Of a stretch of 64,000 bases of DNA, positions 1 through 16,503 are shown piece by piece. The translations under genes were made by a program, and so were the position numbers. Position 1 is the first letter of the stretch, and each line of letters begins with the position of its first letter. Source of the DNA: an uncultured Gammaproteobacteria bacterium (GTDB lineage Bacteria > Pseudomonadota > Gammaproteobacteria > JAURND01). The notes beneath the pieces are model-generated. The model worked only from the letters and a program-made list of their open reading frames with translations, did no database searches and had not been told where the DNA came from. The stretch spans positions 224,001 through 288,000 of the forward strand of contig CAVQQD010000001.1 in NCBI GenBank assembly GCA_963714975.1, given 5' to 3'.

Positions 1-230
1 ACTCTGCCAGGGCCGGCCAAGTCGGTGAACATGCTAATTTTACTCCATAGGTGTGGGGTGGATAGCAGACGCAGCCGTAGGGGTGACGCGTGGGGAAACC
101 ACGCCGCGCGCAGCGTGCGAGCACGGCGGGTGACCGCGCGGCAGGACCCCGAAGGCGTTGCGTCTGCCCCATCCCCCTCTCCCTAAGGAAATTTGGAGCT
201 GTTCACCGACTTGGCCGGCCCTGGCAGAGT
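1..230. mobile_element. MITE-like element with perfect 30-bp terminal inverted repeats and GC-rich self-complementary interior (may extend left of window)
   Basis: 1-30 actctgccagggccggccaagtcggtgaac is the exact reverse complement of 201-230; interior stem ggggtggatagcagacgcagc / gttgcgtctgccccatcccc. Confidence 0.7.
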
Positions 231-235
231 TGCCC

Positions 236-1297
236 TCAGCCGAGGCTGCCCTGCAGCTCTGTGATTTCTATCAGATAATTTGCAAATTCATCTAATTTTA
301 ATTCGCGATCGACAGCTCCCATCGCCTTAGCAACAGCGGCGATCCCAAAAACCACAGACGATTCGGGATCCTGAATCAAGGTATGGCCATGCGCATTTTT
401 TAACTCCATCAAACCTTGGGCGCCATCATTACCCATGCCTGTTAATAAAATACCGATAGCATTTGCACCACAGATTCTAGCAACGGACTTTAACATCACC
501 GTAATTGAAGGGCAGAACCCACTTACTTGATCACCAGACACAAGTCTTGAGATAAGTTTATCTTGAACGCGATCAATTTCTAGATGAACTCCATCTGGAG
601 CAACATAAATGCTGCCTTTTTCCAATTCTTGCAGATTAGTGGCGTCTTTAACTGGCAAAGCAGTACTCTCGTTTAGCCACTTGGTAAAGCCACTGATAAA
701 ACCAAAACTCATATGCTGCACGACTATAATAGGGAGAGGAAAATTGGGTGGTAGCTTCGAAAAAATAGTTTTTAGCGCCAAGGGACCGCCTACTGAAGTA
801 CCCACCGCAACTAACTCATAATTTCGAAATTGCGACTTAATAAAAGTTATTTTGCTAGGTTGTGGAACTTGAATCGTGGGAAATCCTCGCTTAACGACTT
901 TAATTGTTGCCATGCTGCGTAGGGTATCTACAATGCGTTGACGAGTTTCCTCGAATGAAGCTGCCAAAATGTTACTCGGTTTGGCGAGGGCAGTTAATGC
1001 TCCCGCTTCGAGGATATGGAAAGTGGCTTTGACTGATTCATCACTGACAGTGGAACTAATTACCACGATAGGAGTTGGGTTTTGTTCTACGATAATACGA
1101 GTTGCTTCAAGCCCATTCATTATGGGCATTTCAATGTCCATAGTAATCAAGTCGGGTTTTAACTGCGCGGCAAGCTCAACCCCCTCTCTGCCATTTCGAG
1201 CATTACCAACCACAATCATATCCGATTCTGGCTCGATGATATGTTTAATTAATGCAGTTTCGGTATCTGAGTCATCCACAATGAGAATTCGTATCAT
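236..1297 (-). CDS. cheB: Chemotaxis response regulator protein-glutamate methylesterase (REC + CheB)
   Basis: REC (ILIVDDS...ITMDIEMP) plus methylesterase motifs GTSVGGP, VQHM, LTGMGNDGA; ATG at 1297 preferred over 1333. Confidence 0.95.
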   Translation of the reverse strand: MIRILIVDDSDTETALIKHIIEPESDMIVVGNARNGREGVELAAQLKPDLITMDIEMPIMNGLEATRIIVEQNPTPIVVISSTVSDESVKATFHILEAGALTALAKPSNILAASFEETRQRIVDTLRSMATIKVVKRGFPTIQVPQPSKITFIKSQFRNYELVAVGTSVGGPLALKTIFSKLPPNFPLPIIVVQHMSFGFISGFTKWLNESTALPVKDATNLQELEKGSIYVAPDGVHLEIDRVQDKLISRLVSGDQVSGFCPSITVMLKSVARICGANAIGILLTGMGNDGAQGLMELKNAHGHTLIQDPESSVVFGIAAVAKAMGAVDRELKLDEFANYLIEITELQGSLG

Positions 1298-1301
1298 AGG
1301 T

Positions 1302-3548
1302 TTATACCCGTTGCGCTTCAAGATGAAGTGCATTATAAATGAGATCAGCTGAATTCAATACAATAATAATTTGCCCATTACCTGATAAGGTGGCGCCTGC
1401 AATACAGGGCACATTAATTAACGGGAATTGTAACGGTTTTATCACAATTTCTCGTTCGCCGATAACTTCATCGACAAGAATGGCGACAGAGTCCCGCTCT
1501 TTTTTAATCACCACTACGGGCAGTTGTTCGTCGGACGAAAATTTTCTAGCTGGAAGCTGCAATATTTCAGACAGAGCGCATAAATAAATCGGATGATTGT
1601 CCATTAAAATACCTTGGCTACCTTGCATACTAATGACGTCGGCAATACCCAATAACAATACTCGTTCCACTGAGTTAGTAGACATAACAAATAGTTGGTG
1701 ATTGCTACTTACAATCAAACCTCGCTCAGTAGCAAGCGTGAGGGGAACACGCAAATGAAAAGTTGTGCCTTTCCCCAGCTCCGTGGTCACAGTCACTCGA
1801 CCTTTTAAACTAGCAAGATTTGCTTTAACTACGTCAAGACCTACACCACGACCAGAAATTTCCGAGACGATTTCTTTGGTGGAAAATCCAGGGCGAAAAA
1901 TTAATTCGATAATTTCATCTTTCGCCAGGGTCTCGAGATCGGCTTTGGCTAAAATAGTTTTTTTCAAGGCATTTTCAGCCACTTTATTAATATCAATTCC
2001 TCCTCCATCATCAGAAATATTAAAAATAATTTGGTTACCTTCCTCCAGCACCTCAATGCTGATCCGACCCATTTCTGGCTTGCCACTTTTTTTCCGCCAC
2101 TCAACGCTTTCGATACCGTGGTCAATAGCATTGCGAAGGATATGAATAATCGGATCTTTTAAACCCTCCAGGACCATTTTATCAATCTTGACATCATTAT
2201 CTTTGATTACCAGCTCTACAGATTTCCTCAGGCTTTGTGCTATATCACGGACTACCCGGGGTAAATTGCGCAGCAAAGTTGCCACAGGAATCAGGCGTAA
2301 CATCCGCACTTCATCTTGGAGTGCGCTGAATAACACGGTATATTCATTAATGTGTACCTGCATTTCTTTATGCATTTGACTAATGTTATGGGCAATATCC
2401 TCGAGGAGATAGGTATTTTCGCCGTTACGGCTATTGTTAAATTCTAAGCTATTTTTCCTCCAATTAAGCATAAATTGCTTCATTCTATTATTTAACTTAA
2501 CCAGCTGATTAAAATCATCGTCCATAGCAATTTTGTTAACTTGCATTTCTTCCATGTAAGCAGATACACGGTCTAAATTATCAACCGCTACGCGGATGGT
2601 CTCATATTCGCTGGTTTTAGCGGCAGGCGCCTGAGGTTCTGTAATTGGCACTTGTGGAAGAGGCGGTTGCTTTTTTTCCAACTTGCCAGCAGCAGCTTGT
2701 TGTAACCGTAATAAAAGATCTTCAAGATCAAATTCAGGGGGTTTATTTTCCAAAAAACACTGCATGGCCTCTCGCATACAGTCAACTGCCCATAAACAAA
2801 GATTAATCATATCAGCAGAAACTTCTATACTTTTTTTTTGGACTGCAGCAAACAACGTCTCAACATGATGCGCAATTTCGCCGATGTTGGTCAGCCCAAT
2901 ACCGCGCGCAGACCCTTTTACGTTGTGTGCCGCCCTAAAAATAGCTTCAATCGTTTTAGTAGAATCCATTCCTTGTTTTTCATTTTGCTCGAATTCAAGC
3001 AAGGCATTGGTAATTAATTCTAGCCGCTCTTCCAACTCTGCCTTAAAGATTTCCATCACTTGTTGTTGAAATTCGTCAGGCTTAGGCTTGGTTTCCGTTG
3101 GTTTATGGGGTGTTTCTGGCGTAGATGGGAGTTTAAGTCCCGGAGCAGTTTGCCCCTGTTCCAGCTGTTTTAATAACTTTTTCAAGTCAAAAAGCAAGGG
3201 TTTTTCGTCAATGAAACATTGCATGGCTTCGCGCATACGGTCGACTGCTTGCAAACAAAGCGTGATAATTTCAGGAGAAATAGCCAGGGTCTGGGTTTGG
3301 ATGGATGAAAAAAGAGTTTCGACATGGTGGGCAATCTCTCCAACATCTGCAATACCAATTCCATGAGCTGCGCCTTTAATATTATGGGCTGCGCGAAAAA
3401 TTTCATTGATAGTTGGCGAAAGATCTACACCCTCAGGACTGCCCCTTTCTAATGCAAGTAGCCCATCAGTAATAGTTTGCAGTCTCTCTTCAAGCTCGGC
3501 TTTGAATGTGACTACTATTTGTTTTAAAAATTCAGCATTTGACCCCAT
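1302..3548 (-). CDS. cheA: CheA histidine kinase with two Hpt domains, dimerisation, HATPase and CheW domains; no C-terminal REC
   Basis: Two FRAAHN(I/V)KG Hpt motifs, HILRNAIDHGIE, DDGGGID, GFST...SGRGVGLDVV, C-terminal CheW-like IAGATLSGNG. Confidence 0.95.
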   Translation of the reverse strand: MGSNAEFLKQIVVTFKAELEERLQTITDGLLALERGSPEGVDLSPTINEIFRAAHNIKGAAHGIGIADVGEIAHHVETLFSSIQTQTLAISPEIITLCLQAVDRMREAMQCFIDEKPLLFDLKKLLKQLEQGQTAPGLKLPSTPETPHKPTETKPKPDEFQQQVMEIFKAELEERLELITNALLEFEQNEKQGMDSTKTIEAIFRAAHNVKGSARGIGLTNIGEIAHHVETLFAAVQKKSIEVSADMINLCLWAVDCMREAMQCFLENKPPEFDLEDLLLRLQQAAAGKLEKKQPPLPQVPITEPQAPAAKTSEYETIRVAVDNLDRVSAYMEEMQVNKIAMDDDFNQLVKLNNRMKQFMLNWRKNSLEFNNSRNGENTYLLEDIAHNISQMHKEMQVHINEYTVLFSALQDEVRMLRLIPVATLLRNLPRVVRDIAQSLRKSVELVIKDNDVKIDKMVLEGLKDPIIHILRNAIDHGIESVEWRKKSGKPEMGRISIEVLEEGNQIIFNISDDGGGIDINKVAENALKKTILAKADLETLAKDEIIELIFRPGFSTKEIVSEISGRGVGLDVVKANLASLKGRVTVTTELGKGTTFHLRVPLTLATERGLIVSSNHQLFVMSTNSVERVLLLGIADVISMQGSQGILMDNHPIYLCALSEILQLPARKFSSDEQLPVVVIKKERDSVAILVDEVIGEREIVIKPLQFPLINVPCIAGATLSGNGQIIIVLNSADLIYNALHLEAQRV

Positions 3549-3559
3549 TGCCGTACGTC

Positions 3560-5275
3560 CTAAGCATGGCCTCTCAATCCTTCGGCAATTTCAGCTAACT
3601 GATTGATAGCAGTGCTGGTTTGTTTGACACTATTGACGAATGCGGCGGTCACTTGGTTGATTTCACTCATACCTACAGTAATTTGTTCAATACCGATCGC
3701 TTCCTGGCGAATTGCAGCTTCAATATGCTGACTGGCAATGGAAGCTTCGTGGGTCATCTCACTTAAACTTTTAATGACTTCTCCGGCTTTTTCAATTAGT
3801 TTACTGCCATTATCAACTCCTTTAGTGCCTTCTTCAGTGACCAAAACTGCTTCTTCTGCGGCATGGCGGATATCTTCTAAAATTTTCTGCACTTGGGTTG
3901 TGGATTGTTCTGATTGTTCGGCTAAATTTTTTACTTCAATCGCGACCACAGCAAACCCCCTACCTGCTTCGCCTGCTTTTGCTGCTTCAATGGATGCATT
4001 CAGTGCCAACATTTTAGATTGTTGCGCTAAGGCATTAACAACAGCAGTAATTTCTCCTACTTGTTGAGTTTGATTACTTAAGTCAAGAATGGTTTGGGCA
4101 ATAATCTGTACCTTATCACGTAACTCCCGCATTCCCTGAATACTTTGTTCCACAGATTCCATGCCAAGCTTAGCTTTTTCGCGAGTTTGTCTTGCCATCT
4201 CACCCAGGGTCTGTGCTTTTTCACTGGTTTGTTTTGAGCTCTTATCGATTTGCTCTAATGACGCGGTAATTTCATTAATAGACGAAGCCTGCTCTGTAAT
4301 ACCCGTGGATTGTTCATTAGCTGATGACCTTACTTCCTTTAAGGTTTCAATCATGCTATTACTTGTCTCCACGATTCTGACATTTACTGTTTTCATCCTC
4401 TCTTCATTCCGCTTGATTTCATCTTCATTTTCTCGAATAGCGACTTGCATCACGCCTAAAGAATGCAATAAATCGCCAGTCTCATCATTAGAGATCGTGG
4501 TAATTTCAAGATTACGCTCACCTGCAGCAATTCTTTGGGCGATATTGATAGCGTTTTGTAAGGGAGGAACTATTTTCGTAGCGGTAACCAGTGCAATAGC
4601 AATGGAAGCAAGGATTACAATGACTAATATGAGGATTTCTAGTAATTCTAAGACGGTCATACTGTTTGCTATTGTGACGCTACCCTGTTGTAATTTTTGA
4701 TATTGAATATCAAGTAATCCGCCACTGGGATTATTGGCAGGACCTTCTATGATATTCATGATCTTATTAAATAACGGCAATGTTTCAGCACCTAAAATCT
4801 CGGTTGCGGCCGCTGGAGTGCTGGCGTTTTCTACCTTCTCTTGTGCGATTTTAAATGCAAGGAGCAAAGGCTTGATATTTTGCCATCCTGAAACAAAATT
4901 TCGCGACCAATAAGCGGATAAATTATCTAAAATTAGTCGCAGATGATCAATGGCGACCGAGGCAGCAACTCGTCCGGATTTAAACTTAGGATCGTGAAAT
5001 AAAATCCAGCTCCGATTCATTGAGGAAGATTCCCACAAGTTATTTTCTAAGCTGATCATATTATTGTAAGTGGGTAAGTCTGATGTTATGAACTTATTAA
5101 CTGAATTTTTAGTGTGGGCAATGATAAAAAAAGTGATTATAGCGGCGACTATTAAAATAATGATGATGGTAGTATAACCCAGGAGTAAACGTTTACGGAT
5201 ACCTAGACGGGCGAAGTGAGGCTCATCTACCCAATGCCGTGCGTTATTTTGCGGAAATTTGCTTATTCCATTCAT
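3560..5275 (-). CDS. Methyl-accepting chemotaxis protein (2 TM, periplasmic sensor, HAMP, signalling domain)
   Basis: Two hydrophobic TM segments, HAMP (SNDETGDL), hairpin tip LALNASIEAAKAGEAGRGFAVVA. Confidence 0.95.
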   Translation of the reverse strand: MNGISKFPQNNARHWVDEPHFARLGIRKRLLLGYTTIIIILIVAAIITFFIIAHTKNSVNKFITSDLPTYNNMISLENNLWESSSMNRSWILFHDPKFKSGRVAASVAIDHLRLILDNLSAYWSRNFVSGWQNIKPLLLAFKIAQEKVENASTPAAATEILGAETLPLFNKIMNIIEGPANNPSGGLLDIQYQKLQQGSVTIANSMTVLELLEILILVIVILASIAIALVTATKIVPPLQNAINIAQRIAAGERNLEITTISNDETGDLLHSLGVMQVAIRENEDEIKRNEERMKTVNVRIVETSNSMIETLKEVRSSANEQSTGITEQASSINEITASLEQIDKSSKQTSEKAQTLGEMARQTREKAKLGMESVEQSIQGMRELRDKVQIIAQTILDLSNQTQQVGEITAVVNALAQQSKMLALNASIEAAKAGEAGRGFAVVAIEVKNLAEQSEQSTTQVQKILEDIRHAAEEAVLVTEEGTKGVDNGSKLIEKAGEVIKSLSEMTHEASIASQHIEAAIRQEAIGIEQITVGMSEINQVTAAFVNSVKQTSTAINQLAEIAEGLRGHA

Positions 5276-5318
5276 TCAATATCCCTCCTGGAAACTTATT
5301 TAGACTACACCTGCGAAA

Positions 5319-5891
5319 TTAAGCTTGCAATAGCTGAGGATCTTTCATGATCGCTTCAATATTAATAATAGCAATAACTCCGCGGTGAAGTCCAATAACA
5401 TACTCAGTTTTAATCGCGCTAAGCGAGGGAAGGCCAGTGGCTAAGTTGACTGGCTCATAGGTATCACTGTCTTCGATGTTGTCTGCCAATATCCCCAAGG
5501 TAATGCCTTTGGTTGTAACAACTATTACTTGTGCTTTAGCCGTTTTTGTTTCCACACTCTGCAAAGTAAAGAACTGTTTAAGGTCTAAAATAGCAATCAA
5601 AGCGCCATGACGATTAATGATACCTTTGATAAACTGGCGTGAACGTGGCAAGGGAGTAATAAGTACATTACGCATTACCTCCTTAACAAATTCATAGGGA
5701 ATCCCATACGTCTCATTTTCGCCTAATTTAAACCGCACATACGCAACACCTGCCACGTGTTTTACCGTCTCAACTTTCAGCATTGCTAATTGCTTAGCGC
5801 GCTCATGCAAAATTTGCAGTTCTGTCTCATTTCGTGGCATGAGGTTGCTGGCATGTAGCTTGTGATGTCTCCTAGGGGAATGCATGATCAA
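5319..5891 (-). CDS. cheW: CheW-family coupling protein (WspD-like)
   Basis: FKLGENETYGIP...GIINRHGALIAILDLKQFF; position in che operon. Confidence 0.88.
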   Translation of the reverse strand: MIMHSPRRHHKLHASNLMPRNETELQILHERAKQLAMLKVETVKHVAGVAYVRFKLGENETYGIPYEFVKEVMRNVLITPLPRSRQFIKGIINRHGALIAILDLKQFFTLQSVETKTAKAQVIVVTTKGITLGILADNIEDSDTYEPVNLATGLPSLSAIKTEYVIGLHRGVIAIINIEAIMKDPQLLQA

Positions 5892-5915
5892 TACTCCTTA
5901 ACCATGGGCTCACCT

Positions 5916-6794
5916 TCATGGTTTTATAAAATATATTCCTTGATTATCTATATATTGCAGACCGGAATCTGCAACATTAATTGGATCAGAGGCACCTAAT
6001 AATAGATACCCGCCCTCCACCAGGCAGGCACTAATTTTTTTCATAATGCTAATAATACGTTCTTTATCAAAATAGATCAGCACATTTCGACATAAAATCA
6101 AATCTTGGGCATTAGTTCCGTTTAAAATAGCGGGGTATTTATTTGCATTTAAGTTAAGATAAGAAAACTTAACCAGGTTGCGGATTCTGGACGAAAGAAT
6201 ATACCCATGATTCTCTTTAGCAAAATATTTATTGAGATACTGCGGCGTTATGCTACGCATTGACCATTTCGTGTATCGACCAGAAGTTGCTTGCGCTAAT
6301 GCCATGGTATTGATATCTGTGCCCAGTAGCTGCAATGACCAAGCTTCAGGAGTGGTGAGGATTTCACAAAGTAAGATAGCGATAGTATATATTTCTTCAC
6401 CCGTTGCACAACCTGCACTCCATATTCGGATCGTTTTATTTTTTTCCCTGGTCTTTTTTGCGATAATTTCCGGAATAATGATATTTTCCAGCAGTCGTCC
6501 TTGCTGCTTATCACGAAAAAAATAGGTTTCGCCCACAGTAATGCCACCAACTAAATAATCAAATAGTGGAGAATTATCTGCTGCTTGCCGTAATTGTTCG
6601 AGATATTCTGTGGGTTGGCAATGAAATTTTTCACAGGCCTCCAGAATCGTTTTAAACAAATCATTGGTTTGATGCAGATGAATAACGATGCCTAAACGCA
6701 CTTGGATAAAGTTTAAAAAATCCGACTCGCAGGCTATCACCTTTTCGACAAGCTCTCTCGAATGTTGCTTGTAGATGCTAGCATCAATTTTCAT
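5916..6794 (-). CDS. cheR: Chemotaxis methyltransferase CheR (no TPR extension)
   Basis: TVGETYFFRD, IWSAGCATGEEIY, GTDIN, DLILCRNVLIYF. Confidence 0.95.
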   Translation of the reverse strand: MKIDASIYKQHSRELVEKVIACESDFLNFIQVRLGIVIHLHQTNDLFKTILEACEKFHCQPTEYLEQLRQAADNSPLFDYLVGGITVGETYFFRDKQQGRLLENIIIPEIIAKKTREKNKTIRIWSAGCATGEEIYTIAILLCEILTTPEAWSLQLLGTDINTMALAQATSGRYTKWSMRSITPQYLNKYFAKENHGYILSSRIRNLVKFSYLNLNANKYPAILNGTNAQDLILCRNVLIYFDKERIISIMKKISACLVEGGYLLLGASDPINVADSGLQYIDNQGIYFIKP

Positions 6795-7279
6795 ACAGCC
6801 CGTCGTCCCGGCTTCGAGCTAAGCCGAAAATCTAAAATACGTTCCATATTGATTAGTAATGAGACACCTGTATCTAAGGCAATAGCCGCAATAAAGAGGG
6901 AACTTGCGTTGTTAAATTCCTCACGCATTTGCATGATTTCCTCTTCAACATCAGCCAGCCCAAGGACTTCATCAATGATTAGACCTGCTTGAGCACCGTC
7001 AGTACAAAGTAAAATAGGGGTGGTTAATCGGTAGGGCTTATTGGGTGTAAATCCCAGTCTCATAGCTAGATCAATCACGGGGATGCTTTTGCCCGTAAGA
7101 TTCATTAATCCAGCCAAATAGGCAGGGCTATTAGGAACAGTTTCTAAAAAAACCAGTGGCAAAATTTTCTCAATATATTGAACATCCATACAGAAACGCA
7201 CATTTTGCAGCAAAAAATGCAATACTTGCAATTTGTATTTGATTGGTAAATTTGGCATACGATAAGTTCCCAAATGCAC
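6791..7279 (-). CDS. cheW: CheW-family coupling protein (WspB-like)
   Basis: VPNSPAYLAGLMNLTGKSIPVIDL, GLIIDEVLG. Confidence 0.9.
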   Translation of the reverse strand: MHLGTYRMPNLPIKYKLQVLHFLLQNVRFCMDVQYIEKILPLVFLETVPNSPAYLAGLMNLTGKSIPVIDLAMRLGFTPNKPYRLTTPILLCTDGAQAGLIIDEVLGLADVEEEIMQMREEFNNASSLFIAAIALDTGVSLLINMERILDFRLSSKPGRRAV

Positions 7280-7384
7280 GCTCGGTATTTGTGTATTATA
7301 GTTAAGTATGCGCTAAAAGCGAATCAATGCTTAGACTGCGCCCGTGGCCTGAATCCACGGGGCTTTTCAAAATAGGATTCAACC

Positions 7385-8734
7385 ATGCAGAAAAATACTC
7401 CGCCAGATGAACTCTACCAATTTGCCAATGAAAGGATCGAAGAACGAAAATCAGCATTAATTGGTTGGAAAATATTAATAGTGGATGATAAAAAAGCTAT
7501 CCATGAGGTAATTCAATTAGCCCTAAAGGATTTTATTTTTGCAGATAAAATTTTGATTTTTTTACATGCCTATTCAGGACAGGAAGCAAGACAAATTCTT
7601 AATGAAAATTCTAACATTGCCATAATACTGTTGGATGTAACCATGGAACAGGAAGATGCAGGATTACAGATAGTTAAATTTACCCGGGAAGAATTAAAAA
7701 ATTTTTCTACACGAATAATCTTATGCACGGGTCAATTGGATTATGCTCTCGAAACGAAAATAGTCATAGACTATGATGTCAATGAGTATATAGCAAACAC
7801 ACAATTATCTTCAAATCGACTATTTACTGCTATATTAGCCAATTTACGTGCTTATCGTAATATACAACGACTTTCAGAGCAGCAACGCCAATTAGAAAAA
7901 ATTAATGAAGCAGCGTCACGCTTTATTCCAGCGGGATTTTTGCAGCTATTGAACAAACAGAGCATTATTGAACTAGCGCTTGATGATCATATTGAGCAAG
8001 AAATGACAATATTATTTTTGGACATTCGTTCATTTACCACGATCAGTGAGTTTTTATTGCCATTAGAAACCATCAAATTTATTAATAATTTTGTATCATA
8101 CCTAGAGCCTGTCATTGTGGCAAATAAGGGTTTTGTGGATAAATACATTGGTGATGGCTTAATGGCCATATTTGCTACTAAAGCTGATGATGCGGTAAAC
8201 GCAGCAATTGCCATGCTTAAGTCACTAGGAGATTATAATTACACTCGTTTAACCAAGCATCAAATACCTATTAAAATTGGGGTTGGAATTAATACGGGGA
8301 AAACATGTGTTGGAGTAGTAGGTTTCGAGGATCGGATGGATTGCACGGTTATTAGCACCGCAGTTAATGTTGCCTCGCGGATAGAAGATTTAACTAAAAA
8401 ATTGGGGACTCATCTACTGATTAGTTCCGATACTTTTTTGTCCCTTGAAAACTCCAAACAATTTCATTTTCGCTTCATTGGGAAAATGACAGTTAAGGGA
8501 AAACACGAGCCTGTGGGTATCTACGAAATTTTTGATATGGATCCAGAATCTATATTGCAATTTAAAGAACAAACTAAAGAAGAATTCGAAGCAGCGATTA
8601 GCTTATACATGACACGAGAATTCGAAGCAGCGAACAAAATTTTTAGCAAAATTGTTGCTCATAATTCCCACGATGCGCCAGCTAAATATTTTTTAGCAAA
8701 AACCGAGGAATTGCTAAGGTACTCACATAAATAG
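7385..8734 (+). CDS. REC-domain class III adenylate/guanylate cyclase
   Basis: N-terminal REC (ILIVDD, ILLDVTME); cyclase motifs FLDIRSFT, DKYIGDGLM, GINTG, TVISTAVNVASRIE, VKGK. Confidence 0.92.
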   Translation: MQKNTPPDELYQFANERIEERKSALIGWKILIVDDKKAIHEVIQLALKDFIFADKILIFLHAYSGQEARQILNENSNIAIILLDVTMEQEDAGLQIVKFTREELKNFSTRIILCTGQLDYALETKIVIDYDVNEYIANTQLSSNRLFTAILANLRAYRNIQRLSEQQRQLEKINEAASRFIPAGFLQLLNKQSIIELALDDHIEQEMTILFLDIRSFTTISEFLLPLETIKFINNFVSYLEPVIVANKGFVDKYIGDGLMAIFATKADDAVNAAIAMLKSLGDYNYTRLTKHQIPIKIGVGINTGKTCVGVVGFEDRMDCTVISTAVNVASRIEDLTKKLGTHLLISSDTFLSLENSKQFHFRFIGKMTVKGKHEPVGIYEIFDMDPESILQFKEQTKEEFEAAISLYMTREFEAANKIFSKIVAHNSHDAPAKYFLAKTEELLRYSHK

Positions 8735-8742
8735 GAGCACTG

Positions 8743-10050
8743 TCAGTGCGAGGAGCGAGGAAAATTTATAATAAATGTCGTTCCCTTCCCTAAAGTGCTT
8801 TCACATTTTATGCTTCCATTTAAAACCTGGGAAATCTGATTGTAGACAATATGTAACCCTAACCCAGTGCATCCGGCTTCCCGCTTGGTAGTGAAAAAAG
8901 GCTCAAAGATTTTTTGCAGATTTTGTGATGCAATACCTTTGCCGTTATCAGAATATTTAAGCTCTACTCCCCCATTGGTACTTGAAGCTTCAATATTAAG
9001 CGTGCCTGATTGACCTGGATCAAAGCCATGGATGATAGAATTCATAACCATTACCGTAATTGCCCGAAATATTACTCCAGGATAACCATAAACCAGCAAA
9101 TCTTCAGGGCATTCGATCATGGTTTTTAGGGCGGTATCTTTTAAAGCAGGGGCTAAACTAAAAATGATTTCCTCTAAATATTCTTTCAATGAAAACTGAC
9201 GACTTTGTTCTGTTACTTGGTCGACAGACACTTGCTTGAAATTGACAATGAGATCGACAGCTCTATTCAGGTTAATTTTTAATAACTCAATAGCTTCTTG
9301 GATTTTTGCAAAAAAATCAGTTAATTCCGATTTTTTTAAAAGATTTTGGGTGAAGGAACGATAAATAGGCTCCAAGGTTTCATTTAATTGGGTAACCGCT
9401 AAGACACTAATGCCTAAGGGAGTATTGACCTCGTGCGCAACACCAGCAACAAGGTTACCTAAAGAAGCCATTTTTTCTGATTCAATTAATTGCTTTTGGG
9501 TGCTTTTCAATGAATCAATGGTGGCCACAAGTTCATCATTAGCTTTGCGCAATTCTTCCGTTCTTAACTCGACTCTTTGCTCTAACTCAAGATTTAACTT
9601 TTTTAGCTCTTGCTGCGTTTTTTGCAAATCTATTTTCTTTTCTTGCAATTCGAAATAGTCACGGCTATTGCGGATGATATATCGCACGCGATGACCCAGT
9701 AGATCCCAGTTGATGGGCTTGGTAATGAAGTCAGTTGCTTTTACATTAAAAGCTCTATCAATTGAACTTACATCTTCGGAAGCCGTAGTAATTACTATAG
9801 GAACATGCTCACCACCAGGTAATTCTCGCAACTTGGCACAGGCAGTAAAACCATCCATGCCAGCCATAACCAGGTCAAGCAAGATTATGTCTGGCTTTGT
9901 TTCAGCAAATACTGTTAGCGCACTGGCGCCATCTTCTGCTTCATAAACGACAAATCCGGCAGATTCAAGAGCCGAACGCATCAGCAGCCGCATAGTGCGG
10001 CTATCATCAACCACCAGAGCAATATCTTTATCAAGGTTTTGATTTGACAT
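8743..10050 (-). CDS. Cytoplasmic hybrid kinase: REC + coiled coil + HisKA + HATPase
   Basis: REC (LVVDDS, ILLDLVM, FITKP); H-box VAHEVNTPLG; DNGKGI, FEPFFTTK, GLGL. Confidence 0.92.
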   Translation of the reverse strand: MSNQNLDKDIALVVDDSRTMRLLMRSALESAGFVVYEAEDGASALTVFAETKPDIILLDLVMAGMDGFTACAKLRELPGGEHVPIVITTASEDVSSIDRAFNVKATDFITKPINWDLLGHRVRYIIRNSRDYFELQEKKIDLQKTQQELKKLNLELEQRVELRTEELRKANDELVATIDSLKSTQKQLIESEKMASLGNLVAGVAHEVNTPLGISVLAVTQLNETLEPIYRSFTQNLLKKSELTDFFAKIQEAIELLKINLNRAVDLIVNFKQVSVDQVTEQSRQFSLKEYLEEIIFSLAPALKDTALKTMIECPEDLLVYGYPGVIFRAITVMVMNSIIHGFDPGQSGTLNIEASSTNGGVELKYSDNGKGIASQNLQKIFEPFFTTKREAGCTGLGLHIVYNQISQVLNGSIKCESTLGKGTTFIINFPRSSH

Positions 10051-10070
10051 AATTGCAACGCTCTCACACC

Positions 10071-10192
10071 GTCGTCCCGCTCCCGCGACTTGATCGCGGG
10101 ATTGTCCGCGGGATCTAGGTAAAGGCCAATAGAAACTTCATTTCTGGAGTCCCGCGGACAATCCCGCGATCAAGTCGCGGGAGCGGGACGAC
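10071..10192. repeat. REP/REPIN-like palindrome with 43-bp perfect inverted arms
   Basis: 10071-10113 is the reverse complement of 10150-10192; each arm contains hairpin cccgcgacttgatcgcggg. Confidence 0.85.
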
Positions 10193-10312
10193 AAAGCTAA
10201 TTAAGCATAATCGAGTTTACCCGTTTGTCAAAGTCTTATTGACAAAATAGGAGGATAAGATTAGGGTTACTGGCATTAGTAGAGGAAGGAACCATGCTAA
10301 AAGGAACGCAAA

Positions 10313-12124
10313 ATGGATGATATGGAATTACTTTCTTCAGTAAAAGCTTGTGATCTGTTTGCTCATTTAACCGATGAAAAAATTTTTTCTATCCTACCTT
10401 TTTTTAAAAAAATCAGCCTCCTCGAAAGTGAAGTTTTATTTCAACAAGGCACAGAACCCGACGGTTTTTATGTGCTTGTTTCTGGTAAGCTAGTAAGCTC
10501 TTTAGAAACTCCCACAGCGGGAAAGAAAATTATTGGTATGGCTTACCCTGGTGAAACCATAGGCGAATTAGGGGTGATTTCCGGAGAACCGCGCAGCTTG
10601 ACGGTTTCAGCATTGACCGACTCTGAGCTATGGAAACTTTCCGCTGAAGCTTTTTTTCGGATTACCACAGAAAATCCAGATATTTCATCGCAAATAATGC
10701 AGGTTATCACCAAAAGATCCCTGAAAACTCTTAAATTAATTGCTAGTACTAATAAAGCAAAATTCCTAGTATTTTTCAAAGGAAACGAACTGATACCTAT
10801 AGAACAGTTAAAGGAATTTATTCAAACGCAATCCGCTGAAAAGAAAATTGAATTTTGGGATGAAGAATCTTTATCGGCAGAGAAAGTAAGCCGAGTTATT
10901 GAAAGTTCAAGCTATGATGACTATATCATCGTTACTTTAATTACCAATATTAATGCGTTGGTTTTTCAATTAATAGAAAAACAATCCCTCTACTTTTACC
11001 TAATAATACAAAACAACTTGCCAATTACCTTAACTACTCAAATTCAACAAATTTTAAATTATGCCCGAAAAAATAACATTAGAGTAGAACTCATAATATT
11101 GCGAGACAATTTTCAACCAACAGAGCTAAGCACTGAAAAATGGTTGAATCTAGCAGATTTTTGGTTTTATCATAACTTGAACATCCATGACACTACTAGC
11201 TTACAACGTTTTTGGCGCTTTATCCTTGGAAAACCCAACGCCTTAGTTCTTGGTGGCGGAGGAGTAAGAGGATATTGCCATTTTGGCGTCATCAAAGCGT
11301 TGCTAGAACATAATATTCCTATTGATATTATTGGCGGAACTAGTGTTGGCGCTATTGTGGGAGGCCTTTATGCTTTTACCTTGGATTACGCCAAAGCATT
11401 AGAGATTTTTAGCCAAGGAACCGACCTTATCGCAAGCACAGTCTCATTTAAAAATATTACTTTACCTTTAGTGTCTATTTTTAGCGGCAATCCTTTAAAC
11501 GATTTTAACCGAGAAATATTTGGTTCAACCCGAATTGAAAATTTATCCTTGCCATTTTTTTGTGTCTCTGCAAATCTTTCTTCTAAAAGTGAGTATATGC
11601 ATAAATCAGGTTTGCTTTGGCAGGCTGTGCGCAGTAGCTCCTCCATTCCTGGTTTATGGCCACCCGTGCTGCTTAACGGCGATGTACATTTCGATGGTGG
11701 CTTGTTGAATCAACTGCCAGTGGATGCCATGCGTGCATTGCTAGGCCCCAATGCAAAAATTATTGCCTCTCAAGCTTCCGTCACTAAACAGGATTATATC
11801 TATTACAATTTCCCTTCCACAATTAGTTTAAAAGAGGCGTTGCTATATAAGCTAGGATTTAAAAAAAATCAGTATAACTACCCTCCTTTCTTAGAAATTT
11901 TTTTATCAGCCATATTTTTGGGAGCTTCACATGTCGAAGAAAAAAATAGTGCTTTGTGCGATATTCATATTAAGCCCGATCTTACCGATTTTGGTAGATT
12001 TAAGTTAAATCCTGGGCAGGCAGAGCAATTAATTAATATTGGCTACGAATACACAAACAAGTTTTTGCAGAATAAAGAGGAATTATTTAGCAAAAACCAC
12101 CAGGGTTTGTTTACAATTCGCTAG
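10313..12124 (+). CDS. Cyclic-nucleotide-binding patatin-like phospholipase (NTE/RssA-like)
   Basis: N-terminal CNB cassette GETIGELGVISGEPRSLTV; patatin motifs GGGGVRG, GTSVG, DGG all intact. Confidence 0.92.
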   Translation: MDDMELLSSVKACDLFAHLTDEKIFSILPFFKKISLLESEVLFQQGTEPDGFYVLVSGKLVSSLETPTAGKKIIGMAYPGETIGELGVISGEPRSLTVSALTDSELWKLSAEAFFRITTENPDISSQIMQVITKRSLKTLKLIASTNKAKFLVFFKGNELIPIEQLKEFIQTQSAEKKIEFWDEESLSAEKVSRVIESSSYDDYIIVTLITNINALVFQLIEKQSLYFYLIIQNNLPITLTTQIQQILNYARKNNIRVELIILRDNFQPTELSTEKWLNLADFWFYHNLNIHDTTSLQRFWRFILGKPNALVLGGGGVRGYCHFGVIKALLEHNIPIDIIGGTSVGAIVGGLYAFTLDYAKALEIFSQGTDLIASTVSFKNITLPLVSIFSGNPLNDFNREIFGSTRIENLSLPFFCVSANLSSKSEYMHKSGLLWQAVRSSSSIPGLWPPVLLNGDVHFDGGLLNQLPVDAMRALLGPNAKIIASQASVTKQDYIYYNFPSTISLKEALLYKLGFKKNQYNYPPFLEIFLSAIFLGASHVEEKNSALCDIHIKPDLTDFGRFKLNPGQAEQLINIGYEYTNKFLQNKEELFSKNHQGLFTIR

Positions 12125-12221
12125 GCTTGAGCAGAAATCATTGAATTCTGAGCACCGTAGCGCAGTTTACGTGGGTGTAAATGAGCAACGGAGCACAAGA
12201 AATCAATGATTTATGCCAAGC
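12125..12221. repeat. Imperfect ~97-bp palindromic element between convergent genes
   Basis: gcttgagcagaaatcattgaattct ... agaaatcaatgatttatgccaagc arms with inner gtttac..gtaaat hairpin. Confidence 0.65.
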
Positions 12222-12243
12222 ATAGTAGAATTGTAAATAAACC

Positions 12244-13011
12244 CTAAAATGTAAACTCCTGACCACGCCTAACAAATCCCAAAAAACCATAAGCTTTGGC
12301 ATCTGGTAAATCAGCGGCATCATAGTGATATAACCACATTTTAGATTTTATGTCCGAATCTAAGGTGATTAATTGGTCAAAATGAGCATGAAGCCCACTG
12401 GCAGGCGTGGTTAATTCGCAATCTTGAAAAATAATATCCACAGTACGGTAAAAATCAATTAGCTGCTTAGGAGCAAGTTGGGTATCCGTCGTGATAAAAA
12501 TTTTAGTCTGTTTAATATTAAAAATTAACCCATGGCTGGATATTAAAGAATAACCGGACATGGCATGAATGGTTTGTACAGTTTGAAAACTAATATTCTG
12601 CCATTGGAAGATGCCGTTTTTAGATATTGCATGCAGATTAAAAAAACTGCTTAATGAGGCTTGTTCTATCTGCAATGTACTCAAGCCTGCTGAAAGGGCT
12701 TTTTCCCATAAGTCATTAACTAATTCAGAGCTAATATATAAATTGGGTTTTTTGCAGTTAACATCAAACTTAGTGCTAAATGCTAGCCATTCGAGACCGC
12801 CGATATGATCCGCGTGTAAATGACTAATATAAACATCAGTAATATCGCGGTAAGAATAATGCAATCTAGCTAAGGCATGTCGGGCATCAGAGCCGCAGTC
12901 AATCAGCAATTTCTCCGGTATGTTTTCATCCAAAAGTAACATATTGGACTGATAGTTATCATTGAGCGTGAAGGCTGAGCCTGAACCAATGAAGATGAGT
13001 TTCATGTCCAA
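12244..13011 (-). CDS. MBL-fold metallo-hydrolase, Apyc1/RNase Z-like; probable cyclic-nucleotide phosphodiesterase
   Basis: GSGSAF, LLIDCG, SHLHADHIGGLE (HxHxDH), IFQDCE, C-terminal WLYHY. Confidence 0.8.
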   Translation of the reverse strand: MDMKLIFIGSGSAFTLNDNYQSNMLLLDENIPEKLLIDCGSDARHALARLHYSYRDITDVYISHLHADHIGGLEWLAFSTKFDVNCKKPNLYISSELVNDLWEKALSAGLSTLQIEQASLSSFFNLHAISKNGIFQWQNISFQTVQTIHAMSGYSLISSHGLIFNIKQTKIFITTDTQLAPKQLIDFYRTVDIIFQDCELTTPASGLHAHFDQLITLDSDIKSKMWLYHYDAADLPDAKAYGFLGFVRRGQEFTF

Positions 13012-13036
13012 TCCTATAGTTAGTATCGCCGGTGAC

Positions 13037-13603
13037 TCACCGCACTAAAATTTCAATTCGGCGATTAGCGGCACTACCATCAACAGTTTTGTTACTGGCT
13101 ACAGGTTCAGTGTCGCCACAACCAATGATCTTGATGTTTCCTAAAAGGATGCCCTGAGACCATAAATAGGCCGCGATAGTATTAGCTTGCTGATAAGATC
13201 TGGCAAATTTCGAACGGTCTGACCCCACTTCATCAGTATGTCCAACCACAATAACTCGATGATAACCATGCAGCCGAATTAAAGCAGCAATACCATCTAG
13301 GGTCATCACACGATGCTGGGCAATTAGCAGCGAACTGCGGTATCGGAAAAATCGATCTACACCGATGATGATATCCAATTGATCACCCCGCATATTTATT
13401 TCCACTCCATCAGCCTCAAGTTTGGCGATAAGATCACGCAGGTACATTCTAGGGGTATAGCAACCATTTCCCTTACAGACGGTTTTAGGTAGGCAAAAGC
13501 CATTAAGACAAGGCGCGGTTACAACTAGCGGGTCTGAGGCAAGTGTGGGAAGAGCTAAACCCAGCAAGCAAAAAACGCTCATTACTTTAAGCAACCGGCG
13601 CAT
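13037..13603 (-). CDS. Secreted OmpA-C-domain peptidoglycan-binding protein
   Basis: Signal-peptide-like N-terminus; VVGHTDEVG and NRRIEI motifs. Confidence 0.85.
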   Translation of the reverse strand: MRRLLKVMSVFCLLGLALPTLASDPLVVTAPCLNGFCLPKTVCKGNGCYTPRMYLRDLIAKLEADGVEINMRGDQLDIIIGVDRFFRYRSSLLIAQHRVMTLDGIAALIRLHGYHRVIVVGHTDEVGSDRSKFARSYQQANTIAAYLWSQGILLGNIKIIGCGDTEPVASNKTVDGSAANRRIEILVR

Positions 13604-13626
13604 ATTCCTATCCCTCTTTACCCTAT

Positions 13627-13653
13627 AAAAAAGGCGCCTTCTTGACGCCTTTT
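13627..13653 (-). terminator. Intrinsic terminator downstream of cold-shock gene
   Basis: Minus strand AAAAGGCGTC-AAGAA-GGCGCCTTTTTT hairpin with U-tract. Confidence 0.7.
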
Positions 13654-13670
13654 GGTACTACAAAATTTGA

Positions 13671-13889
13671 TTAATCGTCAGCGGGAGTTACCTCTTCTGC
13701 TTGCCAACCCTTTGGCCCTCGCACTGCTTTAAATGTAACCTTTTGACCGTCTGTTAAAGAACGATGGCCCTGTCCTTGAATTTGGCTAAAGTGGACAAAC
13801 ACATCATCGCCACTAGCACGCGCAATAAAACCAAAACCTTTGGCATTGTTAAACCACTTAACAGTACCCGTTTCACGAACATCTGACAT
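13671..13889 (-). CDS. csp: Cold-shock protein (CspA family)
   Basis: [15 protein letters not shown] and DVFVHFS RNP motifs; ATG at 13889 with GAGG RBS. Confidence 0.95.
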
Positions 13890-14050
13890 AAAAAAACCTC
13901 TTAAAAAATAAAAATTCAAACCTTGCGCTTTAGCCAAAAACCACAGAAAATAGCAGCTTCTTTAAAACGCGTAAGTGGGCAAAAGCCATACAGCCCCTTC
14001 CCACCGGTAGCATTATCCTACATTTTCATGGGATTTGTCCAGCAAAAATT

Positions 14051-14866
14051 ATGCATACATCAACTATTGGCGTTTTTGATTCAGGGGTAGGAGGCCTTAC
14101 CGCCCTAAGTAAGCTAGTGGAGCTGCTTCCTTCCTGCAATTTACTTTACCTAGGAGATACGGCGCGTGTGCCATACGGCAATCGCTCGCCCCTGACCATT
14201 GAGTACTATGCCAGGGAGTGCGTGGAATTTCTCTTAAAGCAATCAGTAGAATTGATATTAGTGGCCTGTAATACTATTTCGTCCGTGGCATTGCCGAAAA
14301 TCGAGCAAATATCTTCAGTCCCCGTGGTGGGAGTAATAGACCCAGCCGCTGCAGCCGCCTTAAAATATAGTGATCAGGGCGCAATCGGTATTATTGGTAC
14401 CAGAGCTACGATTACAGCCCAAGCCTATGAACAAGCTATACGTCGGCTAGCAGGACCTGAACGCCGCTTGGCGCTCTATTCTCAAGCTTGCCCCTTGTTT
14501 GTGCCACTGGTGGAAGAAGGCTTCCAGGATCATGCGGCAACTTATGCTATTGCTAAAGAATACTTGCTCCCCTTGCAACAAACCAACATTCAATCATTAA
14601 TTTTAGGGTGCACGCATTATCCTTTACTAAAAAAGGTCATTAGCGATATTATGCCGGAGGTACGTTTGATTGATTCAGGAGAGGAGGCGGCTTTACAAAT
14701 TGTGCAAAAACTTGCGGGAATCGCTGCGGGACAAGAAACATTAGTTGCAGGAAAACGCTCGATTGAGTGTTATGTCACCGATGTAACCCCAACCTTTCTG
14801 CGCCTAGCTCAGCATTTCCTCGGAGTGGCGCCTGATAAGGTGCACCAGGTGTCGATTTCCCAATAA
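14051..14866 (+). CDS. murI: Glutamate racemase
   Basis: FDSGVGGL, PYG, ACNT, LGCTHYP. Confidence 0.96.
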   Translation: MHTSTIGVFDSGVGGLTALSKLVELLPSCNLLYLGDTARVPYGNRSPLTIEYYARECVEFLLKQSVELILVACNTISSVALPKIEQISSVPVVGVIDPAAAAALKYSDQGAIGIIGTRATITAQAYEQAIRRLAGPERRLALYSQACPLFVPLVEEGFQDHAATYAIAKEYLLPLQQTNIQSLILGCTHYPLLKKVISDIMPEVRLIDSGEEAALQIVQKLAGIAAGQETLVAGKRSIECYVTDVTPTFLRLAQHFLGVAPDKVHQVSISQ

Positions 14867-14917
14867 ATTCGTTTTCCCCTTGTGGGAGCAGGAAAACAGT
14901 TGCTATGAGAGTGACGC

Positions 14918-15553
14918 ATGAAAGAAAAATTCATTGAGTTTGCCCTGGAAAATAAAGCCCTGCTTTTTGGTGAGTATAAGTTAAATAGCGGTCGAGTGAG
15001 CCCGTATTTTTTTAATGCCGGTTGTTTTAACACTGGAGCGGCGGTAGCGCGCCTCGGGCAGTTTTATGCCGATACCATTGCAAAATCTGGCCTGGCATTT
15101 GATATTCTATTCGGCCCTGCTTACAAGGGCATCACCTTGGTAACCAGTGTTGCCATTGCCCTAGCGGAACATTTTGGCATTAATAAACCCTACTGTTTTA
15201 ATCGCAAAGAGCCCAAGGACCATGGCGAAGGTGGGCTTATGGTCGGCGCACCGCTGCAAGGTCGAGTGCTGATTATTGATGACGTGGTGAGTACCGGACT
15301 CACCATGCAGAAAACCATGGATCTCATTCATAATGCAGGCGCCACGGTAGTAGGCCTGATTATTTCATTGGATCGACAAGAACGAGGCTTGAATCATCTT
15401 TCAGCCGTGCAAGAAGTCAAAAAAAAATATCAAATTCCTGTAATTAATGTGATAGACTTACAAAACTTGATGGATTATTTACAGGGCCAGGGATCTTTCC
15501 AGCAATTAGAGCTAATGCAAAATTATCAGAATCAGTATGGGGTTAATGTTTAA
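14918..15553 (+). CDS. pyrE: Orotate phosphoribosyltransferase
   Basis: SGRVSPYFFNAG, FGPAYKGI, NRKEPKDHGEGG, IIDDVVSTG. Confidence 0.96.
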   Translation: MKEKFIEFALENKALLFGEYKLNSGRVSPYFFNAGCFNTGAAVARLGQFYADTIAKSGLAFDILFGPAYKGITLVTSVAIALAEHFGINKPYCFNRKEPKDHGEGGLMVGAPLQGRVLIIDDVVSTGLTMQKTMDLIHNAGATVVGLIISLDRQERGLNHLSAVQEVKKKYQIPVINVIDLQNLMDYLQGQGSFQQLELMQNYQNQYGVNV

Positions 15554-15559
15554 GCAATA

Positions 15560-15764
15560 TAACTATTCACCACCTTTGTGCGTAAAAATCCTTCTCCCCT
15601 TGTGGGAGAAGGTGCCCGAAAGGGCGGATGAGGGGTAAACTTGAAACCATCAAGAAGCATTTTATTAGCTAAATGCTAACTGTTGCTTACCCCTCACCCG
15701 CGCACCTTACGGCGCGGCGGCCTCTCCCACAAGGGGAGAGAGGCAAAATCGTGGTGAATAGCTA
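15560..15764. mobile_element. ~205-bp MITE/REPIN-like element, family A copy 1
   Basis: TIR taactattcaccac...gtggtgaatagcta enclosing two inverted REP units (ccttctccccttgtgggagaagg..gagggg / cccctc..cctctcccacaaggggagag); near-identical to 16257-16462. Confidence 0.8.
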
Positions 15765-15800
15765 CATAAGTAATTACTATTAATTTAGAGGATTAATATT

Positions 15801-16232: not shown

Positions 16233-16256
16233 GTGGCAATTAGGTGGGGAAAATTG

Positions 16257-16462: not shown

Positions 16463-16503
16463 CGGAAAATTTTTTTATACGCACAATAATTAAGAGGCAC
16501 ATA

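Follow-up and report, generated by a model that had tools for sequence, protein, structure and literature searches.

The 64,000-nucleotide stretch of DNA analyzed here, which we call the window (G000:C1:224001-288000, part of the 2.56 Mb, three-contig assembly of an uncultured gammaproteobacterium), carries at positions 236 to 13011 a block of ten genes: a chemosensory (che) operon, a class III nucleotide cyclase and a histidine kinase that each bear a receiver (REC) domain, a patatin-type lipase with a cyclic-nucleotide-binding (CNB) domain, and an enzyme of the metallo-beta-lactamase (MBL) fold. We lean towards reading this block as a complete pathway of five steps, in which a signal would be sensed, written as cyclic AMP (cAMP), read by the lipase and erased by the MBL enzyme. 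An earlier note on the same DNA had described these genes as one contiguous block with intact signature motifs, and this description holds, as the open reading frame (ORF) listing and the Pfam scan returned ten intact ORFs, all with domain matches over the Pfam cut-offs and with the motifs present. The roles of writer, reader and eraser that it had assigned also fit a class III cyclase, a CNB-patatin with intact sites and an MBL protein of the Apyc1 family. The ten genes are as follows.

236 to 1333, minus strand: CheB methylesterase, last gene of the che operon (Pfam CheB_methylest, 183 bits; Response_reg, 76 bits)
1302 to 3548, minus strand: CheA kinase (Pfam Hpt in two stretches, HATPase_c, CheW)
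3560 to 5275, minus strand: methyl-accepting chemotaxis protein (MCP), a transmembrane chemoreceptor (Pfam MCPsignal, 124 bits)
5319 to 5891, minus strand: CheW coupling protein, second copy (Pfam CheW, 69 bits)
5916 to 6794, minus strand: CheR methyltransferase (Pfam CheR, 163 bits)
6791 to 7279, minus strand: CheW coupling protein, first gene of the che operon (Pfam CheW, 78 bits)
7385 to 8734, plus strand: REC domain with class III (IIIb-like, Lys/Thr) adenylate cyclase, the candidate writer (Pfam REC and Guanylate_cyc)
8743 to 10050, minus strand: receiver-histidine kinase (Pfam REC and HATPase_c)
10313 to 12124, plus strand: CNB domain, alpha/beta middle domain and patatin lipase, the candidate reader and effector (Pfam cNMP_binding, Patatin)
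12244 to 13011, minus strand: Apyc1-family MBL-fold candidate phosphodiesterase, the candidate eraser (PF23023 Anti-Pycsar_Apyc1, 92.5 bits, cut-off 50)

In the pathway we envisage, an array of the MCP, two CheW proteins and CheA, with adaptation by CheR and CheB, would sense a signal outside the cytoplasm and have no tie to a flagellum. Phosphorylated CheA, with its two Hpt domains, would phosphorylate CheB and residue D59 in the receiver of the REC-kinase, setting the activity of the kinase, and H206 of the kinase would phosphorylate D84 in the receiver of the cyclase, changing cAMP synthesis. The cAMP would bind the CNB domain of the patatin lipase and switch lipid hydrolysis, and it may also bind the genome's other CNB protein, which lies beside a bacteriocin-type exporter; finally, the Apyc1-family MBL enzyme would hydrolyze cAMP and reset the system. 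We infer every phosphotransfer, cAMP as the product, the activation of the lipase and the phosphodiesterase activity from sequence.

The che genes, the REC-kinase and the REC-cyclase appear from their gene order to form one unit, and this part of the reading is well supported. The operon holds a complete core of MCP, CheW, CheA, CheR and CheB in one cluster, the sole CheW-containing cluster of the genome, and its first CheW gene is divergent from the REC-cyclase gene with 105 bp between them. In the MCP, hydrophobic segments at residues 26-44 and 214-232 enclose a predicted periplasmic domain of about 165 residues, and the cytoplasmic signaling domain follows; CheB scores 322 bits against NCBIfam PRK00742 (cut-off 293). 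CheA has no C-terminal receiver and carries tandem Hpt (P1) domains, with His55 and His208, both of which align to the single Hpt domain of the orthologue in G008, a genome of the same taxonomic order and the closest relative to carry all the parts. The two P1 domains created by this duplication could serve two different receivers.

We found no FlhA in the genome, which makes flagellar control of the che system unlikely, and no CheY, flagellar or pilus genes in the block or its flanks; the ATPases of the T2SSE type are located elsewhere in the genome. With a complete core, no flagellar or pilus link and an output other than a motor-binding CheY, the cluster would belong with the alternative-function, or ACF-type, chemosensory pathways of the 19-class scheme cited in PMC9239204. 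The operon had been described as lacking CheY, and this stands for the block, which contains no single-domain REC gene and where the REC matches are those of CheB, the cyclase and the kinase only, while the genome elsewhere has 24 small stand-alone REC ORFs. A single paralogous family of proteins of about 110-175 aa, scattered over C1, C2 and C3, makes up 21 of these 24, with one member in the window (39030-39479, minus strand) and 20 further loci; its motifs are an acidic 'LVED', 'DLGLPD', 'TAHG' and 'KPL', and the genome has one CheA only.

The window's taxonomic order is represented by only nine species genomes in the collection, and besides the window's genome CheA is found in G008 only. 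There the order is CheW, CheR, CheW, MCP, CheA, CheB, REC-cyclase and REC-kinase on one strand, with the end of CheB overlapping the start of the cyclase gene, and the same eight genes are thus linked in the window and in G008 in different order. In G008, CheB is divided between ORFs of 143 and 183 aa (L023:3150-4212, G008:C9), through either a frameshift or an assembly error. When an alignment of the REC-cyclase was scanned against one genome per species, 80 loci were returned, only five of which hold a full-length REC-cyclase (one in Latescibacterota, four in Magnetococcales); the other 75 match the receiver only. Three of the Magnetococcales loci (L027-L029) have the order CheA, REC-kinase, REC-cyclase, and two of them continue downstream on the same strand with more che genes, CheW and CheB in both L028 and L029 and also MCP and CheR in L028. 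The kinase and cyclase genes are convergent in the window and co-directional in G008 and Magnetococcales. The flanks fetched around the REC-cyclase loci of Latescibacterota and Magnetococcales contained neither CNB nor MBL genes.

Across the 82 aligned proteins the domains found were REC in 80, DUF3369 in 71, HD(-GYP) in 57, cyclase in 7, SpoIIE in 5 and GGDEF/EAL in 4, and the receiver gene is usually accompanied by a homologue of the kinase core, whose position in the 80 loci was as follows.

Kinase-core homologue directly upstream of the receiver gene, same strand: 46 of 80 loci
Kinase-core homologue within 3.5 kb of the receiver gene: 13 of 80 loci
Kinase-core homologue farther from the receiver gene: 2 of 80 loci
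Kinase-core homologue not seen near the receiver gene: 19 of 80 loci, three of which have almost no upstream sequence

As a kinase-core homologue stands beside the receiver gene in most loci, the kinase and the cyclase receiver are best viewed as a cognate two-component pair, and because the kinase is the cognate partner of the cyclase receiver the arrangement would be a relay from CheA to the REC-kinase to the REC-cyclase and not two parallel outputs. The earlier note had not given the REC-kinase this place between CheA and the cyclase, and this is the point at which our reading departs from it. We consider the route from CheA through the REC-kinase to the REC-adenylate cyclase likely, as far as gene order and domain content can indicate. 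The window's cyclase receiver and kinase core belong to the pairing of REC-DUF3369 regulators, mostly with HD-GYP domains, with an upstream kinase. They differ from the usual pair in that a class III cyclase stands in place of DUF3369/HD-GYP, as in only 7 of the 82 proteins, and in that an N-terminal receiver on the kinase is limited to the five cases with a link to che (the window, G008 and L027-L029).

A relay of this kind has been demonstrated by experiment in Rhodospirillum centenum, where CheA3 phosphorylates the receiver of the REC-kinase CheS3, which in turn phosphorylates CheY3 (PMC3868531). The two systems are alike in having a Che cluster that does not serve motility and that passes, in the window as deduced from sequence, from CheA through a REC-histidine kinase to a final regulator. 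In the window the REC-kinase is encoded with che genes and has D59 and H206 intact, and the linkage is kept in G008 and Magnetococcales. The systems differ in that a single-domain CheY3 controls cyst formation in R. centenum and CheA3 is a hybrid kinase, whereas in the window an adenylate cyclase is joined to the regulator and CheA lacks a receiver.

At the end of the proposed relay, the cyclase has complete catalytic residues (D213, D257, K253, T321, N328, R332 and K373 in the translation), comprising the two metal-binding aspartates, the Lys and Thr substrate pair and the transition-state Asn and Arg of class III cyclases. The nearest solved structures of its cyclase domain are the adenylate cyclases bPAC, CyaB (3r5g) and OaPAC, with E values of about 1e-21 and all catalytic positions aligned, and the Lys253/Thr321 pair together with these relatives makes cAMP the likely product. 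The REC-cyclase is the sole PF00211 match in the genome, in which we found neither a class I cyclase nor a CYTH protein. By hydrophobicity the four right-hand proteins of the block (cyclase, kinase, CNB-patatin and MBL) look soluble. The REC-kinase is likewise complete in its translation, with D59 in the receiver, H206 and all ATPase boxes.

The block had also been treated as one unit, and the comparison with G002 and G003, two genomes of the same family, supports this. To the left of the block lie housekeeping genes (an efflux pump, lgt and sucCD) and a 279-aa ORF, and to the right lie an OmpA-family gene, Csp, a glutamate-racemase-like gene and a phosphoribosyltransferase (PRT) gene. The two flanks meet in G002 and G003, where the orthologue of the 279-aa ORF is the immediate neighbor of those of the OmpA-Csp-racemase-PRT genes, and all ten genes therefore occupy one insertion site as a single insertion. 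The guanine-plus-cytosine (GC) content of the block is 39.7%, which is below the 45.2% of the remaining window and the 43.1% of the genome as a whole. Judged from these sequence features, the block of about 12.8 kb is a horizontally inserted low-GC signaling island, and the co-location of its genes is beyond chance. Its left edge is marked by one further feature.

1 to 237 (C1:223995-224237, starting about 5 bp before the window), no strand assigned: an element that resembles a miniature inverted-repeat transposable element (MITE), found by reading the sequence

This MITE-like element is GC-rich, 245 bp long and bounded by 37-bp terminal inverted repeats, and blastn finds more than 30 full or partial copies of it on all three contigs. 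A tRNA scan of window positions 1-20000 gave no tRNA gene, no integrase was found around the block, and no direct or inverted repeats of 9 bp or longer are common to both block ends. A scan for promoter-like and terminator-like sites between 6800 and 14100 was uninformative (19 found against 21.4 expected, and 1 against 6.4, respectively).

We hold the assignment of the CNB-patatin as the cAMP reader with moderate confidence, which comes from exclusion (one cyclase and two CNB proteins in the genome), from recurrent pairing with cyclases elsewhere and from the common insertion. The CNB site keeps E85 and R94, and the lipase keeps GGGxxRG, G-T-S344-V-G and D461-G-G; within the family of 18 members the CNB Glu and Arg are present in 14 and the lipase Ser-Asp dyad in all 18. 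An AlphaFold model with a mean pLDDT (predicted local distance difference test) of 81.5 divides the protein into the CNB domain, an alpha/beta middle domain (about residues 150-305) and the patatin domain. In a Foldseek search of the PDB, the patatin part resembled PlpD, CapV and CapE, and the CNB part resembled CRP and PKA-R. The middle domain (window 10760-11230) is conserved and has no Pfam match and none from the whole-model Foldseek search of the PDB. The idea that it is a degenerate second CNB domain was rejected at an hhalign probability of 2.3%.

Full-length homologues of the CNB-patatin were found in 14 other genomes of the 301 sampled and in G003 and G008, which makes 17 loci from 16 genomes; the unpublished G046 and G148 are among the 29 of 301 genomes tallied, and no claim is built on either. 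A class III cyclase lies directly downstream of the CNB-patatin in G003 and G006 (both with a dCache sensor) and in G156 (with CHASE2), and in G216 a DUF5939-cyclase lies 3.4 kb away, so that a cyclase is nearby in 4 of the 17 loci. In both G003 and G006 the adjacent cyclase is the only class III cyclase of the genome. Between the CNB-patatin and the cyclase of G216 (L107:10609-13809) is a gene for a 1066-aa fatty-acyl-AMP ligase-carrier-reductase, which hints at a lipid-metabolic setting. The second of the only two CNB proteins in the window's genome, of 145 aa (G000:C3:732712-744971), is encoded upstream of an HlyD-like gene, an ABC exporter with a C39 peptidase and a second ABC protein, beside a 1882-aa nonribosomal peptide synthetase; the functions in this exporter region were assigned from ORF starts and a weak TIGR03896 match. 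This small protein is another possible cAMP target.

An alternative for the lipase alone is that it is an exported, host-directed enzyme that responds to cyclic nucleotides of the host and has no connection to the bacterial cyclase. Its combination of CNB and patatin is the architecture of eukaryotic NTE/PNPLA6-7, a family of secreted patatin effectors in NCBIfam matches it weakly and in part (E 8e-11 over 43 residues), and a class III cyclase is missing from 4 of the 16 genomes in which homologues occur. However, the operon-like pairing with bacterial cyclases in three other genomes speaks against this alternative, as does the prediction of no signal peptide and no membrane segment in a protein that is predicted to be soluble, and we regard it as highly improbable. 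As a candidate bacterial cAMP reader, the CNB-patatin shares with NTE/PNPLA6 and PNPLA7 a CNB domain or domains fused to a patatin lipase, and E85, R94, S344, D461 and GGGxxRG are all present in it. The eukaryotic proteins are membrane-anchored with several CNB domains, whereas the window's protein is predicted to be soluble and has one CNB domain and an unrelated alpha/beta middle domain.

The role of the MBL protein as a cyclic nucleoside monophosphate (cNMP) phosphodiesterase, and hence as the putative eraser, is well supported by gene context. Its metal motif, H64-x-H-x-D-H at residues 64-69, is intact, and its best solved relatives are Apyc1 structures (7u2r, 7u2s and 7t28) at E values of about 1e-25. 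On the same strand, 25 bp separate the gene from the conserved OmpA-family gene upstream of it. None of 14 control genomes scored over the PF23023 cut-off, and of 300 genomes sampled evenly from the class, 22 had a match over it. For gene context we took the 20 best-scoring places outside the window, which fall in 19 genomes; G061 and G136, the two lowest over the cut-off, and three below it were excluded. The loci are not all independent, since G234 gives two and G109 and G291 share one genus.

Of these 20 loci, 10 have a class III cyclase no farther than about 5 kb from the MBL orthologue (the match is weak in one case), 7 have a CNB protein in that range, and 11 have one or the other. The 19 genomes have between 0 and 5 class III cyclases each, with at least one in 18, and in five genomes with a single cyclase it is that cyclase which neighbors the MBL gene; a rough estimate puts the chance of such proximity below 1% per locus, taking about two cyclases per genome and a genome size of about 2.7 Mb. 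The nearby cyclases carry dCache or REC sensors, and the nearby CNB domains are fused to MMPL, a Na+/H+ exchanger, MscS, GGDEF, SulP-STAS or an M50 peptidase, or stand alone. As the orthologues adjoin sensor cyclases and CNB proteins, this MBL clade would belong to ordinary cyclase/CNB signaling modules. On contig C19 of G008 the MBL gene overlaps by 4 bp the gene of a 1786-aa kinase-AAA-GAF-cyclase, a protein (L024:8945-14305) composed of a Ser/Thr kinase, AAA_16, GAF and a class III cyclase. It is one of three giant class III cyclase-domain proteins of 1727-1786 aa in G008, found on C19 and on C8 near 208000-214000, and in G234 (L118) the MBL gene neighbors a similar cyclase-domain protein of 1697 aa.

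Several observations weigh against the five genes or gene groups acting as one pathway. The full five-part block was seen only in the window's genome, and in G008 the parts are dispersed, with the che operon on C9, the CNB-patatin on C6 and the MBL gene on C19 with the different 1786-aa cyclase; the completeness of the two assemblies is 93.75% (G000) and 67% (G008). No cyclase is within reach in 13 of the 17 CNB-patatin loci (some on short contigs), no class III cyclase at all is present in the 4 of 16 genomes mentioned above, and we found an MBL gene near none of the 17 CNB-patatin loci and a CNB-patatin near none of the 20 MBL loci. Any of the 24 small REC ORFs could take phosphate from CheA. 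In addition, the cyclase receiver has N138 in place of the conserved Lys that 81 of 82 relatives keep, and it also deviates at three nearly invariant positions (134, 136 and 140). The conservation of the whole neighborhood in relatives, on which the earlier note had set store, was thus not borne out, as G008 has all the parts with the CNB-patatin and MBL genes on contigs other than that of che. Of its self-contained circuit, what stands is coupling in pairs or small groups (che with kinase and cyclase, cyclase with CNB-patatin, and cyclase or CNB with MBL), and what does not stand is conservation of the five-part block.

These observations can be accommodated if only the che genes, the REC-kinase and the REC-cyclase make up one pathway, and the CNB-patatin and MBL genes belong to the cAMP system in general, came to the same insertion site and serve the cAMP pool of the cell without special wiring to the chemoreceptor. 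The three contigs of G008 agree with this explanation, as does the fact that the exact triad occurs in none of the CNB-patatin or MBL loci, and the GC content is uneven inside the block, at 41.2% for the che operon and 35-40% for the right-hand genes. The single insertion site of the block argues the other way, and we judge the explanation somewhat unlikely. Furthermore, with one cyclase and two CNB proteins in the genome, whatever cAMP the lipase reads can only be supplied by the che-linked cyclase, and in practice this explanation and the five-step pathway converge.

The changes in the cyclase receiver, which were absent from the account of the earlier note, raise instead the question of whether the pathway is decaying or rewired, the switch lysine of the receiver being lost and the cyclase being free of che and kinase control, either constitutive or otherwise controlled. 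Through the missing Lys the receiver falls short of the full residue set of a phosphorylatable receiver, and the missing Lys and the changed signature positions mean that phospho-control of the cyclase may be altered, weakened or lost. The rearranged gene order, convergent in the window where G008 and Magnetococcales have kinase and cyclase co-directional, would also fit decay. However, all ten ORFs are intact, the receiver retains the acidic pair D34/D35, the phospho-acceptor D84 and T115, and the cyclase has all its catalytic residues, while in the orthologue from G008 Lys replaces Arg332. We therefore find decay or rewiring quite unlikely.

The cyclase and the CNB-patatin could also be an abortive-infection pair similar to Pycsar or to CBASS (cyclic oligonucleotide-based antiphage signaling system), in which an alarm nucleotide would trigger membrane destruction by the patatin, with the MBL protein as a host-encoded brake. 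PADLOC gave the cyclase a best score of 69.9 bits against PycC, the CNB domain 40 bits against PycTIR and the patatin 32 bits against CBASS phospholipase; the patatin fold resembles CapV and CapE, and the block is an inserted island. None of these scores exceeds the 77 bits reached with the generic class III model of Pfam, however, and the nearest solved relatives of the cyclase, with its purine-type Lys/Thr site, are bPAC and CyaB, both of them signaling adenylate cyclases. The window's cyclase is under the control of a receiver and linked to che genes, the partner cyclases of the CNB-patatin elsewhere carry dCache, CHASE2 or DUF5939, the MBL orthologues adjoin transporters, channels and a GGDEF-CNB protein and not defense genes, and no phage or other defense genes were seen in the flanks of the block. 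On the MBL protein PADLOC gave nothing beyond an E value of 0.003. We consider the defense pair very unlikely.

Assignment to CBASS itself was rejected, as the block has no CD-NTase (cGAS/DncV-like nucleotidyltransferase) and the patatin scores 29.8 bits against NCBIfam CBASS_lipase, far below the cut-off of 200; assignment to Pycsar was rejected with a PycC score at the generic class III level, a CNB-patatin as effector and the purine-type Lys/Thr pair. The likeness to Pycsar (PycC with CNB-TIR or CNB-TM) and to CBASS CapV lies in the combination of a cyclase with a nucleotide-activated effector and in a patatin fold similar to CapV. The block has no CD-NTase, its cyclase is sensor-controlled and looks purine-specific, and the effector types matched were TIR and a phospholipase without CNB, with CNB-patatin not among them. 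The analogy drawn earlier with these systems is thus good at the level of domains and fails beyond it, with a cyclase nearest to bPAC and CyaB, PADLOC scores no better than generic and, in relatives, partner cyclases with dCache, CHASE2 and REC sensors. Defense as a purpose of the block, which had been suggested as one possibility, is unlikely, given PADLOC scores at generic level, a purine-type, sensor-driven cyclase and neighbors among which no phage or defense genes were seen.

The block is a variant on known alternative-function chemosensory pathways and on known cyclase/CNB/phosphodiesterase modules. The Wsp system of Pseudomonas has an array with two CheW proteins, CheR and CheB, in which WspE, a CheA-REC hybrid, acts directly on WspR, a REC-GGDEF protein whose product is cyclic di-GMP (c-di-GMP). 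The window resembles it in that the output of a chemosensory array would be a second messenger made by a receiver-fused cyclase. It differs from the Wsp type in having a class III cyclase reached through an intermediate kinase, no GGDEF domain and a CheA without a receiver. Pil-Chp of Pseudomonas raises cAMP from the class III cyclase CyaB, which is not known to have a receiver and is controlled indirectly; it is tied to type IV pili and has the CheY-like proteins PilG and PilH. It shares with the window the association of a chemosensory system with a class III cyclase, and CyaB is among the nearest solved relatives of the window's cyclase domain, but the block has no pilus tie and no CheY-like gene of the PilG/PilH type. 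In Myxococcus xanthus, a Che3 cluster without CheY similarly feeds a separate two-component pair, CrdS/CrdA (PMC3147164). The output of the Myxococcus system is an NtrC-type transcription factor and not a cyclase.

Among the modules without chemosensory input, the clusters of Campylobacterota with a CHASE2-cyclase and a phosphodiesterase are similar in that a sensor adenylate cyclase is conserved with a cAMP phosphodiesterase (PMC9239204). They have another sensor, phosphodiesterase context and partners (FecR, TPR), with no che input and no CNB-lipase. Our full-text search, which covered sources outside subscription journals and supplementary files, found no published description of a che-linked receiver-cyclase or its relay, of a bacterial pair of cyclase and CNB-patatin, or of a bacterial module of these two with an Apyc1-type enzyme.

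A broader reading of these data can be offered only tentatively, and we would sooner expect parts of it to fail than the whole to hold. The block might be a circuit complete in itself and transferable, with a chemoreceptor array that adapts by methylation and governs the hydrolysis of membrane lipids via cAMP. It might also be the first chemosensory pathway in which the terminal response regulator, reached from CheA through a REC-kinase, is a nucleotide cyclase, with the same relay in Magnetococcales, and the Apyc1 family might primarily be a housekeeping eraser of cyclase/CNB modules, of which the phage anti-Pycsar enzymes would be one branch. If this is true, cAMP from a receiver-fused class III cyclase would join motors, pili, c-di-GMP and transcription among the chemosensory outputs, and the window would give a second, sequence-defined example of the relay from CheA to a REC-kinase studied so far in R. 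centenum. The CNB-patatin would then offer a simple model from bacteria of how cNMPs control a patatin lipase with the architecture of NTE/PNPLA6-7.

For the Apyc1 family, Hobbs et al. (2022, PMC9117128) reported that bacterial Apyc1 homologues cleave cNMPs broadly and left open their role in cNMP signaling. The gene contexts described here bear on that question of what the bacterial homologues do, as in about half of the examined loci they adjoin sensor cyclases and CNB-fused transporters, channels and enzymes. The window's MBL protein is of the same Pfam family as Apyc1, the phage anti-Pycsar nuclease, and as bacterial MBL phosphodiesterases such as YhfI, with the same HxHxDH motif; it differs from Apyc1 in that its gene is chromosomal with no phage genes around it and in that its orthologues adjoin sensor cyclases and CNB proteins. 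A comparable signaling cluster without che genes is found around the MBL orthologue of another gammaproteobacterium (L120, G027:C15:54800-74799), where a kinase and a regulator of the REC-DUF3369 type, a HisKA-REC-cyclase, three receiver domains, a second kinase, an MMPL-CNB protein and a stand-alone CNB protein are encoded together with it.

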